The notes below the pieces were generated by a model. It did not search any database. It was given only the letters and a program-made list of their open reading frames with translations, and had not been told where the DNA came from. From an uncultured delta proteobacterium (GTDB taxonomy: Bacteria > Desulfobacterota > Binatia > UBA9968), in NCBI GenBank assembly GCA_963737905.1, contig CAVTUQ010000007.1, forward strand, positions 352,001 through 416,000: 64,000 nt of DNA, given 5' to 3'. Made by a program: the position numbers and the translations under genes. The first letter of the stretch is position 1; each line of letters begins with the position of its first letter. Below are positions 49,838 to 60,684 of the stretch, piece after piece.

Positions 49838-50833
49838 TCACTTAATCACTTTATCCGCCCGCGCCAACACATTCGGCGGGATTGTAAGGCCTATCTGTTT
49901 AGCGGTTTTCAGATTGATGACGAACTCGAACTTTGTCGGTTGCTCGACTGGCAGGTCGCTGGGCTTGGCTCCCTTCAAGATTCTGTCCACGAAATAGGCG
50001 ACGCGCCGGTAACTGTCCGCGAGGTCCGCCCCGTAGTACATGAGGCCGCCGGCATCTACAGCTTCTTCGACGCCATACATCGCCGGCAGTCGGTTCTTTA
50101 ACGCAAAGCCCGCAATCCGTTGTACGTTAGCACGTATTTGCCGGCCTCCGCCGGGCACAAAGATTCCATCCGGGCGCTGCTTATTTAGGGCAGCGAATAC
50201 CTTCTCTAAACCGTCCGCATCGCGTACCTCCCAAGACTTAAGAGTCAATCCCAGCGCACGCGCCGTGACAGGGAGACCCTTTCTTACCTCGTTCGCAGTG
50301 CCCTGAGCGGCAGGATCGTAGAGAACCGCGACACTGGAAACCTTGGGAACGGCTTCTTTGAATAGCTCAAGCCGCTTACCACCTAGTTCACGGCCAAGGT
50401 TTGTGATGCCGGTAACGTTGCCACCGGGACGGGCAAGGCTTTCAACGAAGCCTGCTTTCACAGGATCAGTCCCAACGCCCACCATGACGATCGGAATCGT
50501 CTTGGTTGCATTCTTGGCTGCCCGGATCTCCGGGTCCCCTCCCGATACCACGATCAAATCAACCTTCAGACGCACCAGTTCAACGGCAAGTTCAGGAAGC
50601 CGATCGAGCTTACCTTGCGAATAGCGATAATCGAAGGCGATGTTTTGTCCTTCTGTGTAGCCAAGCTCACGTAGTGCCATCCGAATCGGCTTAGAACGCC
50701 GGAAATCAGTAGTGGGGTCGGTCGACGATAGATACCCTACTCGGGAAACTTTCTTCGGCTGCTGCGCGGCGGTGAGATTGCAAAGCGCTAAGAGCAGAGC
50801 GCCAAGCGCGAAAAGCAGGACATTTTTTCTCAT
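49838..50833 (-). CDS. ABC_sub_bind paralog I (array)
   Basis: Signal peptide [35 protein letters not shown]. Confidence 0.92.
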   Translation of the reverse strand: MRKNVLLFALGALLLALCNLTAAQQPKKVSRVGYLSSTDPTTDFRRSKPIRMALRELGYTEGQNIAFDYRYSQGKLDRLPELAVELVRLKVDLIVVSGGDPEIRAAKNATKTIPIVMVGVGTDPVKAGFVESLARPGGNVTGITNLGRELGGKRLELFKEAVPKVSSVAVLYDPAAQGTANEVRKGLPVTARALGLTLKSWEVRDADGLEKVFAALNKQRPDGIFVPGGGRQIRANVQRIAGFALKNRLPAMYGVEEAVDAGGLMYYGADLADSYRRVAYFVDRILKGAKPSDLPVEQPTKFEFVINLKTAKQIGLTIPPNVLARADKVIK

Positions 50834-50882
50834 CTGTTCTCCGGTTCTTTCCGCTTGGCTCTTTACCCCATGCGCTTTGCCG

Positions 50883-50946
50883 TCATCGGATTACCTTATC
50901 GGCTCGATACGGCACGGACTGCGAAATCGTCACGCCGACCTGAGCT
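50883..50946 (-). pseudogene. orphan 3' tail of an ABC_sub_bind gene
   Basis: Reads QVGVTISQSVPYRADKVIR*, resembling the tail of 163-1149. Confidence 0.75.
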
Positions 50947-51010
50947 TGACTCTAACGTTGATACCGACTCCAACTTGTCTGTAATCTAATGCCATTGTAA
51001 ACTCCAAGCG

Positions 51011-51295
51011 GTGTTAATCGATGAATTGCTGTGGCCTCAGGATCGAATTAATCATATCGGTAGACACCGCGTGCGACCGGAAGAGGTTGAAGAAGTATGT
51101 TTCGGCAACCCCTGGGTACGACGCACCAAAGCAACTGGCAAAAACCCAGTTTACTATGTCCTCGGCCAAACCCGTTCTGGCCGGTACTTGTTTTGTGTTG
51201 TGGTCCAGTTTCCCAATCGCAAAGGTTTCCCGGTCACCGCTCGAGCTATGACGGAAAAAGAAAAGCGACAATTCAGGCGATGGAAAAGACAATGA
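51011..51295 (+). CDS. BrnT-family toxin
   Basis: W..H..RH.V..EEVEEV, GQT..GRYL..V, VTARAM..KE. Confidence 0.85.
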   Translation: MLIDELLWPQDRINHIGRHRVRPEEVEEVCFGNPWVRRTKATGKNPVYYVLGQTRSGRYLFCVVVQFPNRKGFPVTARAMTEKEKRQFRRWKRQ

Positions 51296-51570
51296 AAGCA
51301 CGTAAGATCCCTTCCACTGATTCAATCGAAGAACTTGCTCGGTTCTGGGACCGCCATGACCTGACAGATTTCGAGGACCAACTTGAGGAAGTCAGTGCTC
51401 CGGTATTTACTCGTAAGTCCACCACAGCGGTGACGGTTCGATTGCGTCCTAACGAAGCCAAAGAAATCAAGCGAGTTGCCAAAACCAAACGTGTGCCAGA
51501 AGCGACGTTAATACGCCGCTGGGTCATCGAGAAACTGCGCGCCTCCGGCACGTCGTCTAGAAAGCGCTGA
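51292..51570 (+). CDS. CopG/BrnA-type antitoxin
   Basis: EELARFWDRHDLTDF plus C-terminal RHH (VTVRL..LIRRW); ATGA-coupled to the toxin. Confidence 0.85.
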   Translation: MKARKIPSTDSIEELARFWDRHDLTDFEDQLEEVSAPVFTRKSTTAVTVRLRPNEAKEIKRVAKTKRVPEATLIRRWVIEKLRASGTSSRKR

Positions 51571-51613
51571 TCTTCACGGGTGGATACAACCCTAGCCTTT
51601 CGCCCCTCTTGGG

Positions 51614-58513: not shown

Positions 58514-58567
58514 TGAGTTCTCCCGTGGGTTTTTCTGGCTCCCTGCTCTTAGCTTCATGCTTCCCTG

Positions 58568-59599
58568 CTATCTTATGACCTTGTCTGCCCTCGCTAGCAC
58601 GTTGGGCGGGATCGTGAAGCCGATTTGCTTAGCTGCTTTGAGGTTGACGATGAATTCGAACTTTGTGGGTTGTTCGACGGGCAGGTCGGCCGGCTTGGCG
58701 CCCTTCAGAATCTTGTCCACATAGGTGGCGGCGCGGTGGTACAGGGCAGCAAAGCTTACGCCATAGCTCATCAGCCCTCCATCGTCCACCCACTGGGACT
58801 GCGGGTAGATTGCCGGCAGCCGATTCTTTAGCGCGAGTTCCGCGATCTGTTTGCGTTTGGGATTGAAAACCGGAGTCTGCAACACGAGCATTGCGCCGGC
58901 CCGTTCTTTATTTGCGGCTTGGAATGCAGGCTCAATATCTCGCGGATCTGCTATCTCGAGGTATTGAAGCTTTACCCCAAAGGCCCCCGCGGCAAGTTCA
59001 ATTTCTCTCAAGGTTTGCGCGTTACCCGGTTCGGCTGAAGTTCCCAGAACAGCCACGCGGGAGAGCCGTGGAACGATCTCCTTGAGAAGCTCCAGTTGTT
59101 TTCCGCTCAACTCCGGTGAAAGCGCCGATAGACCCGTGATGTTTCCTCCCGGCCGCGCAAGACCGGCAATGAAACCATTGCCGACGGGGTCGGGATCAAA
59201 TGCCATGACGATGGGAATCGTAGCTGTTGCCTGTTTGGCCGCGCGGGTCATGGTCGGGCCGCTCGTAACGATGACATTTACTTTGAGGCGCACGACCTCG
59301 GCGGCTAGTTCACTCTGTCGTTCGACCTTGCCGTCTCCAGATCGCCACTCGATGACGATATTTTTCCCTTCTACGTAACCCAGTTCCCGCATCCCCTGAC
59401 GGAAGGCCTCGTTGCGAGCGACGTTTGAGGAAAGCGACGAGATGGTCAGGTATCCCACGTGCGGGATTTTTCTCTGTTGTTGGGCCGACGCGGTCGAACA
59501 AACCGCAAAGAGTGTGGCGCATATTAGAATTGCGGATTTGAGATTGCGGAATGCGGATTTTAGGTCAATGTCGAGACAGTGAAACAAAATTCGATCCAT
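58568..59599 (-). CDS. ABC_sub_bind paralog B (array)
   Basis: Intact; N-terminus contains heptamer-derived KSAFRNLKSAI. Confidence 0.92.
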   Translation of the reverse strand: MDRILFHCLDIDLKSAFRNLKSAILICATLFAVCSTASAQQQRKIPHVGYLTISSLSSNVARNEAFRQGMRELGYVEGKNIVIEWRSGDGKVERQSELAAEVVRLKVNVIVTSGPTMTRAAKQATATIPIVMAFDPDPVGNGFIAGLARPGGNITGLSALSPELSGKQLELLKEIVPRLSRVAVLGTSAEPGNAQTLREIELAAGAFGVKLQYLEIADPRDIEPAFQAANKERAGAMLVLQTPVFNPKRKQIAELALKNRLPAIYPQSQWVDDGGLMSYGVSFAALYHRAATYVDKILKGAKPADLPVEQPTKFEFIVNLKAAKQIGFTIPPNVLARADKVIR

Positions 59600-59636
59600 T
59601 GCTGTTTCCCCTCAATTCGAAATTCGCAATCCGAAA

Positions 59637-60620
59637 TTATCTAATAACCTTGTCCGCCCGCGCCAGCACATTCGGCGGAATCGTGAGCCCGATCTGCTTC
59701 GCCGTTTTGAGATTTACCACCAGCTCGAACTTTGTCGGCTGCTCCACCGGTAGGTCGGCAGGCTTACGGCCTTTCAAGATTTTATCCACAAAGCTCGCTA
59801 CTCGTTCATACATCTCCATAACGTCCGCACCGTAAAACATGAGCCCACCTACATCCACCGCATCTCTGGCGTCATACATTGACGGCAACCGGCTCTTTAT
59901 GGCAAAGGCCGTAGTTCGTTCAAAGCTACGTTGCATCAGTGGGCCGCCAAGCACAGAGATTCCATCAGGGCGCTCCTTGTTTATCGACGCGAATACTCTG
60001 TAAAAGCCATTCGCATCGCGTACATCACGACGCAATATCGTTAGATTCAGCGCGCGCGCCGATGATGAGAGCACTTCCTTGAACTCCAACATGTTGCGCT
60101 TATTGTTAGCCTCGTAAAGGATGGCGATGCGGGTAGCTTTCGGAACCGCTTCTTTGAGCAGCTCCAGCCGTTTGCCGCCGAGATAACCAGAGATATTTAT
60201 ATAACCGGTAATGTTCCCGCCGGGACGGGCAAGACTTTCGATCAGGCCGGCCTCGACGGGATCGGTCCCACCACCCACCATAACAATCGGAATCGTCTGG
60301 GTCGCATTCTTGGCTTCCAGGATCGGCCTGTAGCCTCCCGCTACGAGAATGACGTCAACCTTCAGATTCACCAGTTCGGCCGCAAGCCCAGGAAGCCGAT
60401 CAAGCTTGCCTTCTGCACTTCGGTACTCCATCGAAATATTCCGTCCTTCGACGTAACCGAGGACTTGCAATGCCCGGCGAATCTCCTGCTTGCGGTCGGA
60501 GTCAAGTGCCGCCGGCTGCGTGGTCAGATACCCGATCCGTGCAACTTTTTGCTGCGCCTCGGCGAACCTGCCTGCCGCAAGAAGGCCAAGTGTAACTAGG
60601 CAGACAACTTTCTTATTCAT
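59637..60620 (-). CDS. ABC_sub_bind paralog A (first gene of the array)
   Basis: Intact; family motifs. Confidence 0.92.
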   Translation of the reverse strand: MNKKVVCLVTLGLLAAGRFAEAQQKVARIGYLTTQPAALDSDRKQEIRRALQVLGYVEGRNISMEYRSAEGKLDRLPGLAAELVNLKVDVILVAGGYRPILEAKNATQTIPIVMVGGGTDPVEAGLIESLARPGGNITGYINISGYLGGKRLELLKEAVPKATRIAILYEANNKRNMLEFKEVLSSSARALNLTILRRDVRDANGFYRVFASINKERPDGISVLGGPLMQRSFERTTAFAIKSRLPSMYDARDAVDVGGLMFYGADVMEMYERVASFVDKILKGRKPADLPVEQPTKFELVVNLKTAKQIGLTIPPNVLARADKVIR

Positions 60621-60637
60621 GGCCTTTCCCTTTTAGC

Positions 60638-60684
60638 GCAATGGTTATGCCAAAAAACGGAGGCTATGCAAATCACAACTTATG
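60638..60684 (-). promoter_or_regulatory. sigma54 (-24/-12) promoter plus conserved 15-mer at the head of the array
   Basis: Minus strand TTGGCATAACCATTGC (GG-N10-GC); AAATCACAACTTATG identical to 10465-10479. Confidence 0.55.

Follow-up and report, generated by a model that had tools for sequence, protein, structure and literature searches.

Nine co-oriented PF04392 binding-protein genes in an uncultured soil bacterium, probably one array of an old lineage-wide expansion

The window analyzed here is a 64,000-nucleotide (nt) stretch of contig CAVTUQ010000007.1 (positions 352,001 to 416,000, assembly GCA_963737905.1), taken from the metagenome bin of an uncultured soil bacterium (6.7 Mb, 46 contigs, 87% complete, 6.7% contaminated). 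A Pfam profile scan of its minus strand found nine genes of the PF04392 (ABC_sub_bind) family between 49838 and 60620, all in the same direction. PF04392 proteins are partners of ATP-binding cassette (ABC) importers. Orphan binding proteins are known to expand in particular lineages, and the locus adds a new family and a new lineage to this kind of phenomenon. The array is probably one of about ten that an old expansion left in this genome.

Genes and signals of the array

In order from the array head, the copies are H, G, F, E, D, C, B, X, and A. Copy H (59637-60620, Pfam 4.4e-43) is followed by copy G (58568-59599, 1.2e-46), copy F (57479-58513, 1.8e-53; the open frame extends to 58558, and the likely start at 58513 was deduced from the conserved spacer layout), copy E (56471-57433, 5.4e-46), copy D (55045-56088, 6.4e-50), copy C (53790-54875, 8.3e-40, profile positions 20-281 of 293), copy B (52762-53790, 5e-52), copy X (51732-52760), and copy A as the last gene (49838-50833, 1.7e-46). 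Copy X is full length and spread over four frames in this assembly, matching consecutive profile pieces (13-148, 147-219, 209-259, and 258-333); its second piece (96 amino acids), taken alone, gave no PF04392 match. X carries at least three frameshifts in the assembly, and C and D carry one each. The alignment places the one in C, a single base, ahead of the final ~17 codons, with the frame continuing to the start of B; in D the signal peptide lies in a different frame from ~56030, with the break near 55935.

The nine copies and a distant paralog, copy Z (163-1185, minus strand, 9e-44), scored 62 to 182 bits against a PF04392 cut-off of 25.9. Protein identity to copy F was 47 to 64%, and DNA identity between copies was 60 to 80%. 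No array copy lacks a ribosome-binding site, an ATG, or a signal peptide of its own, and the signal peptide ends in AxA before QQ in all of them, H included. The final ~70 residues are almost invariant, and the variability lies after the signal peptide and first strand and in the middle of the protein. The first-pass annotation, which had been made from the letters alone, was thus right in describing nine co-oriented paralogs of ~1 kb with a conserved C terminus and variable segments behind the signal peptide and in mid-protein. Its further paralog and fragment in another zone of the window were also recovered, as Z and as an N-terminal PF04392 fragment at ~9735-9854. Copy E, which it had called D, does share the motif DQPHLxSF with Z, as it had stated; in the family tree, E is the sister of Z with weak support (0.34).

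The nine genes are separated by eight junctions, five of which are spacers of 37 to 54 nt that hold a ribosome-binding site and one hairpin arm. At the other three, the stop of E is overlapped by the start of a four-helix-bundle gene (PF05635, 56058-56474, minus strand, 2.9e-14), a 27-nt spacer precedes D, and a 169-nt spacer between D and C contains a solo 3' stump, the last ~15 codons of a PF04392 gene (54931-54976, minus strand), which stands behind a one-armed heptamer remnant. A second solo stump lies at 51615-51660 on the same strand. Both belong to repeat family D6 and have a small palindrome at the 5' edge (stem at 51649-51668 and 54965-54980), and because this palindrome is identical in the two, they are copies of one junction and not the products of two separate decays. 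A BrnT-like toxin and CopG-type antitoxin pair (51011-51570, plus strand) runs against the direction of the array; the BrnT match (PF04365, 28.7 bits, 1.7e-6) is below the Pfam cut-off of 34.5, and the CopG match (PF12441, 36.5 bits, 8.2e-9) is above its cut-off of 28. Of the extra elements reported earlier, the toxin-antitoxin pair and the four-helix-bundle gene were therefore found again, and three supposed tail-only remnants were reduced to the two solo stumps, the remaining tail-like copies being the tails of X and of the frameshifted C.

A terminator-like hairpin (60709-60741, minus strand, a 13-pair stem and then a T run) closes the upstream unit and marks the array head, and a second one (49808-49824, minus strand) lies 14 nt past the stop of A. 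A single promoter candidate had been proposed at the head. For sigma-70 this did not stand, as promoter-like sites were not above chance (3 found, 7.0 expected); one candidate of the sigma-54 type is present, a -24/-12 motif (TGGCA-N6-TTGC; 60638-60652, minus strand) 18 nt ahead of the start codon of H. We rated it as weak because the expected transcript start leaves a leader of only 6 to 8 nt. The motif matched twice in the window (0.67 expected), and genome-wide 5 of 205 matches lay within 400 nt upstream of one of 77 PF04392 N termini, on the same strand (roughly 0.47 expected). Motifs of this type upstream of PF04392 units were observed at 60638-60652 in the window and at C12:177157, C19:95881, C37:133540, and C40:69754 on other contigs. 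Furthermore, the genome encodes RpoN, and another array, of 13 genes, follows a sigma-54 activator gene. The toxin-antitoxin pair, being on the opposite strand, may separate A transcriptionally from the rest of the array.

Copy number, lineage, and age of the family

No permease or ATPase gene lies in the interior of the array. The earlier statement that none lies nearby was wrong in the letter, since a complete-looking Liv-type ABC importer (43347-48130, minus strand) sits 1.7 to 6.5 kb downstream on the same strand, beyond a CAAX-protease-like gene. It comprises a Peripla_BP_6 binding-protein gene (PF13458, 46901-48130), two BPD_transp_2 permeases (PF02653, 44934-46888), and an ABC ATPase (PF00005, 43347-44207), so the permeases nearest to the array form a pair that has a PF13458 binding protein of its own. 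Systems of the TrpXYZ type are operons with a single BPD_transp_2 permease and an ATPase of their own; the array has neither.

The imbalance extends to the whole genome, where 127 PF04392 matches stand against 9 PF02653 matches at four loci, each locus a permease pair. When a profile built from the window copies was run against the genome, it recovered 183 pieces of open reading frames (ORFs), with 56 copies intact in one frame. These intact copies lie in about ten co-oriented arrays, the largest of them on contigs C27 and C29. The paralogs thus far outnumber the membrane components.

We then considered how widely the expansion is distributed. PF04392 was present in each of 24 further genomes from the same taxonomic family, many with at least 43 candidates and one with 156, and in 0 of 11 genomes of a sister family; the family tally takes in two unpublished genomes (G006 and G012), on which nothing else here depends. 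The expansion is therefore common to the lineage and absent from the sister family. In a collection of species representatives, 628 of 642 candidate stretches encoded relatives. The 76 loci kept came from records named Binatia, "delta proteobacterium," Syntrophobacter-like, Methylomirabilota/Rokubacteria, Alphaproteobacteria, and Betaproteobacteria, and co-oriented arrays of 5 to 13 intact copies were common among them (in Binatia, Methylomirabilota, Delta-, Alpha-, and Betaproteobacteria records).

Orphan binding proteins of tripartite tricarboxylate transporter (TTT) systems are reportedly over-represented in Bordetella and Cupriavidus. The same is described for the orphan TTT (Bug/TctC-type) solute-binding proteins of Rhodoplanes sp. 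Z2-YC6860, where the accessible text of the paper reports an array of nine genes, most of which have their closest relatives elsewhere in the genome, and reads the pattern as a lineage-specific expansion with gene movement (PMC5994714). As far as that text goes, the likeness is close: dozens to hundreds of binding-protein paralogs accompany a handful of membrane components, and the genes stand in tandem arrays, one of them of nine genes, whose members share ~50% identity or less and have their nearest kin mostly elsewhere. The array genes studied here belong to PF04392, partner of ABC importers, and not to PF03401 (TctC) of the tripartite transporters; one phenomenon is thus seen in two families. 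The hosts differ as well, being uncultured Binatia-like soil bacteria, as do the junctions, which here bear heptamer-repeat hairpins that overlap the signal-peptide coding region. Among titles and abstract openings in the literature on PF04392, COG2984, or ABC_sub_bind, none was about an expansion, and a search for Binatia or Binatota together with binding proteins yielded nothing relevant among the matches listed. The array widens the over-representation of orphan binding proteins, so far described for the TTT/Bug type, to include an ABC-type family and uncultured lineages that are abundant in soil, with up to about 150 copies per genome alongside very few translocators.

The copies are old. 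Across the 1,540 pairs formed by the 56 intact copies, the median DNA identity was 0.56 and the maximum was 0.874; there are no recent duplicates and no silent partial donors among them. The best match lay within the same array for only 13 of the 56 copies, and only 4 of 17 sister pairs shared an array. On the family tree, array labels required 40 changes, compared with 42.7 ± 1.5 after shuffling, and 60 of 1,000 shuffles did as well. Since neighbors do not form clades and the labels are nearly random on the tree, the arrays did not arise by local duplication. The phylogeny thus bears out one part of the first-pass reading, namely, that simple tandem duplication does not account for the array.

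Identical runs of 187, 80, 71, and 57 nt occurred in pairs that were 63 to 83% identical overall. The shortest of these joins B and F, whose signal-peptide regions share 57 identical nt within genes that are 63.5% identical. The few long runs of this kind indicate that ectopic exchange happens but is rare and involves short tracts. The longest run, seen in another array between C2:252022-253008 and C2:255393-256376 (82% identical overall), is a clear gene-conversion tract.

On this evidence, we consider it likely that an old, lineage-wide expansion of PF04392 left about ten co-oriented arrays, which now form a standing repertoire of receptors with diverged pockets under slow birth and death. 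The arrays would evolve by the slow gain and loss of genes, by relocation between arrays, and by occasional short ectopic gene conversion. Small selfish modules would settle in their junctions, such as the toxin-antitoxin pair and the heptamer-hairpin elements with or without a four-helix-bundle gene.

Several observations weigh against this account. With the Liv-type importer just downstream, the nine copies may not be truly orphan. The permease count is a lower bound, as the bin is 87% complete, and with 6.7% contamination some arrays could belong to another organism. The 57-nt identity of B and F shows what appears to be an exchange of 5' modules. In addition, among 40 contigs of 2 to 20 kb from two congeners, no ortholog of the window copies exceeded 80% identity, and the best matches, at 65 to 80%, were at paralog level. 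The congener results reflect either high turnover or missing assembly, and they neither exclude a gene-moving mechanism nor show an active one. On a congener contig that keeps the CAAX-protease neighbor, the A-like gene is nearer to a C27 copy than to A. One other adjacent pair (C37:133923-135939) keeps its order in both congeners, at 91 to 93% and 71 to 75% identity (L092 and L112). This C37 pair has a sigma-54-type motif upstream and may be a conserved "core" member of the family.

Ligand pocket and partner proteins

A profile of the nine copies matched solved structures with high significance (3LKV, 4.2e-47; 3LFT, 1.2e-41; 6HNI, 2.7e-35). The solved PF04392 proteins are CD0873 of Clostridioides difficile (6HNI; PMC6816091), VC_1101 (3LKV), and SP1069/TrpX (3LFT) (PMC10443332). 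These three relatives are described as binding Phe, Trp, and Tyr (PMC10443332), and Glu-263 and Tyr-279 of CD0873 are described as setting the side-chain preference (PMC6816091). The array copies belong to the same Pfam family and have, by sequence, the same class I fold. The conserved C-terminal segment is also present in the solved Streptococcus and Vibrio proteins and is thus a trait of the whole family and not a mark of the array.

The pocket is where the copies differ most. In the 56 paralogs, the columns of Glu-263 and Tyr-279, which were placed by residue pattern in three pairwise alignments, are the 7th and 6th most variable of 330, with 14 residues each. The variable segments thus include pocket positions, and the two positions that set preference in the solved proteins are among the most variable here. 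In most copies, moreover, the segment after the first strand is unlike that of the solved proteins, so the ligands probably extend beyond aromatic amino acids. Each gene would encode a Sec-exported class I binding protein with a conserved scaffold and C-terminal part and a diverged ligand pocket. Because the scaffold is conserved and the pocket has diverged, the array is better explained as a standing repertoire for different small molecules than as a switching system, and its copies may well be receptors for different ligands. That the most variable residues fall in the pocket suggests a repertoire for broad scavenging or sensing.

The partners of these proteins are a separate matter. Translocators are far fewer than binding proteins in the genome, and from this we infer that a small number of BPD_transp_2-type ABC translocators serve many binding proteins in common, or that some binding proteins pass signals to sensors. 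We favor sharing, with sensor partners as the main rival. Under that rival, the binding proteins would pass their ligands to membrane sensors (kinases, cyclases, or chemoreceptors), and the array would serve as a chemical "nose." We regard this as unlikely, but it fares better than the other alternatives. It draws on the lack of PF02653 permeases (0 of 126 ORFs) in the flanks of arrays in other genomes, which also speaks for an orphan state of the binding proteins there. ABC ATPases made up 2 of the 126 ORFs and NMT1-type binding proteins 9 (two of these nine being one gene in overlapping loci). The flanking set consisted of ORFs of 180 to 560 amino acids within 6 kb of the arrays at 36 loci with at least three copies; 23 longer ORFs were excluded. 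Some flanks hold a sigma-54 activator response regulator (L016), receiver-cyclase genes (L045 and L064), or an HWE kinase (L076), and the accessible text of the Rhodoplanes paper raises the sensory option as well (PMC5994714). Such signaling neighbors are, however, a minority and of mixed kinds, and no sensor kinase, cyclase, or chemoreceptor was present among the ORFs scanned around the array in the window. The solved relatives bind aromatic amino acids (PMC10443332), and at least the relatives in C. difficile (PMC6816091) and Streptococcus suis are described as parts of ABC uptake systems. Unlike the uptake operons so described for these two species, the array has no permease or ATPase gene between its copies or directly beside them.

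An NMT1/THI5-type binding-protein gene lies just upstream of the array (61042-62094). Binding proteins of this type also stand beside PF04392 arrays elsewhere (L027, L030, L032, L035, L045, and L052), with no transporter genes nearby.

Junction hairpins, gene movement, and the assembly

Six copies (A, X, B, C, E, and F) are preceded by a spacer that repeats, imperfectly and in inverted orientation, the sequence encoding the hydrophobic core of the signal peptide that follows. These junctions fold into stems of 17 to 46 pairs, with the ribosome-binding site and ATG in the loop, and both arms are runs of 7-base units. At copy B, for example (53682-53860, minus strand), the left arm lies in the spacer and the right arm in the signal-peptide coding region. 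Six such hairpins without a gene of their own lie near 50774-50887, 52668-52752, 53682-53860, 54769-54943, 57382-57484, and 58406-58572, the arm coordinates being approximate. Compared with 200 dinucleotide shuffles, folding gave z values of -2.98 for B, -2.42 for E, and -2.21 for A, and the 5' junction of copy G folded no better than its shuffles (z = -0.91). Copy D and the four-helix-bundle gene have an AT-rich heptamer unit, the coding arm of which spells a lysine-rich stretch.

The hairpins are not special to the PF04392 family. Inverted repeats at z of at least 3 were found at 7 of 77 PF04392 N termini in the genome and at 29 of 220 in other loci, with differing units and the same layout. 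The genome has 99 arrays of period 7, compared with 68, 21, 1, and 3 for periods 5, 6, 8, and 9, and since only 9 of the 99 are near PF04392 genes, most lie elsewhere. A polysaccharide synthesis and export cluster at C28:160000-215000 (L089-L091) is dense in heptamer arrays and contains four PF05635 genes, together with small toxin-antitoxin-like pairs (DUF433/DUF5615 and MazE).

The four-helix-bundle gene of the window lies in the stem loop of inverted heptamer arrays, with a left arm at ~56451-56469, read at the ORF start, and a right arm at 56037-56072, taken from the period-7 scan. A four-helix-bundle ORF between inverted 7-base arrays makes this a PF05635 heptamer-hairpin cassette, similar to an intervening sequence. 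The genome has 11 PF05635 genes, each with its own heptamer unit; a strict heptamer array lies within 300 nt of 6 of them, and the others have degenerate inverted runs recognized by eye. A matching layout occurs at C27:7786-8082, inside another PF04392 array. In contrast to the ORF-bearing intervening sequences of 23S rRNA, the cassette of the window stands in mRNA between two binding-protein genes, and in contrast to PF05635 hairpin cassettes, the gene-less hairpins enclose the start codons of neighboring genes and overlap signal-peptide coding sequence. A plausible reason for the overlap is that signal peptides tolerate such sequence. The locus thus shows how a common hairpin element can come to overlap a signal-peptide coding region. 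In Beggiatoaceae, Cyanobacteria, and Bacteroidetes, direct repeats of heptamers are described ahead of start codons, in a paper whose accessible text makes no mention of four-helix-bundle genes (PMC4679880).

The hairpins suggest a second alternative, to which we give little credence, namely, that they are portable 5' modules and homology handles that move genes or small cassettes between arrays. Each module would provide the next gene with its ribosome-binding site and start codon and with a portion of its signal peptide, which the coding arm may supply through the hydrophobic or lysine-rich residues that it chances to encode. Combined with the invariant tail, the modules would make up a slow, recombinase-free "cassette" system distinct from integrons, an idea that we likewise hold to be improbable. 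It would account for the 57-nt right arm that B and F share, for the two stumps with one junction, and for the independence of hairpin type from the gene tree, in which D, F, and G are close kin with different types. Against these stand the single clear tract in this array, the inverted repeats (z of at least 3) at only 7 of 77 N termini in the genome, and the fact that no movement event was observed; identical coding arms could also reflect constraint.

The first-pass annotation had gone further and proposed an actively shuffled library, in which site-specific recombination or conversion from silent copies reorders or swaps the genes, as in integrons or antigenic variation. We find this tempting reading unsupported and very improbable, and we set it aside in favor of the old expansion. 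The array does resemble an integron array in that its genes share one direction, stand close together, and mostly lack their own promoters, with at most one candidate at the head, in the imperfect inverted repeats at most junctions, and in neighbors that are not each other's nearest kin. It differs from one in that all its genes belong to one family and are old, and in that the repeats straddle the start codon of the next gene, with one hairpin arm always inside its signal peptide; five of the eight junctions, moreover, are spacers of just 37 to 54 nt. In line with the earlier remark that no recombinase is encoded in the window, the 60 window ORFs scanned included no integrase or transposase family and, in particular, no IntI (PF00589), the search for which was confined to these ORFs and did not cover the rest of the genome. 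The attC sites of integron cassettes carry the inverse core sites RYYYAAC and GTTRRRY. Pairs of such cores numbered 0, compared with a mean of 1.5 in 100 shuffles (49700-61000, both strands, 35- to 125-nt spacing, no covariance model used). On these scans, an integron cassette array is not supported for this locus. The hairpins are a genome-wide class, and the same array pattern has been published for another binding-protein family (PMC5994714).

An antigenic-variation or silent-cassette system is likewise not supported. Silent cassettes are absent, since a start codon and a signal peptide are present in each of the copies, and with a maximum identity of 87% there are no near-identical copies. 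A diversity-generating retroelement, which the Avd-related PF05635 gene had brought to mind, was rejected: no reverse transcriptase (RVT) family was found among the 60 ORFs, and the array has no near-identical template repeat. In two other genomes, a tyrosine recombinase gene and, after it, one for an IS91-type (Y2_Tnp) transposase adjoin a PF04392 array (L041:12587-14508 and L061:12127-14202).

An assembly artefact, in which reads of different strains were fused or paralogs wrongly joined, is the least credible alternative. In its favor, the bin is 6.7% contaminated and several frame breaks resemble indel errors. Against it, short-read contigs obtained independently from four soil runs agree with stretches of the array without mismatch (e.g., 50165-50581, 56643-56908, and 59013-59243), one contig spans the G/F junction (58414-58660) with a single mismatch, and the copies are too divergent (60 to 80%) to confuse an assembler.

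These short-read contigs, which came from four shallow soil runs of one study, also bear on the frame breaks. A contig of a 95%-identical relative lacks two of the breaks in X (51958 and 52082), and in a contig of a 98%-identical relative an additional base at 55935 removes the single break in D. By frame arithmetic these differences restore one frame, and in D they recreate the usual first strand behind a normal signal peptide. The three breaks are thus either indel errors of the long-read assembly or strain-specific lesions. Split copies in the loci of other genomes were much commoner in long-read bins than in short-read bins, which points in the same direction. Indel errors are probable in the long-read assembly, so the pseudogene counts are to be taken as maxima. 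Apparent "joints" in the contigs were rejected as structural variants, since their sides are only 21 to 74 letters long and lie within conserved tails or paralogs. Elsewhere in the window, a homoserine dehydrogenase (24528-25708) and an ABC ATPase region (44207-44934) also look split.

Three further features lie in the window outside the array. At gathering thresholds, Rfam gave nothing in the array and, in the window, only a PyrR binding site (36340-36449, 54.5 bits, cut-off 54), which adjoins the 5' end of a phosphoribosyltransferase gene (35778-36341). An ORF of 643 amino acids (33835-35766) combines aspartate/ornithine carbamoyltransferase domains with a phosphoribosyltransferase domain and may be a fusion or a frame error. 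Finally, the small protein encoded at 10965-11393 looks secreted and has a CVNH (cyanovirin-N homology) domain.

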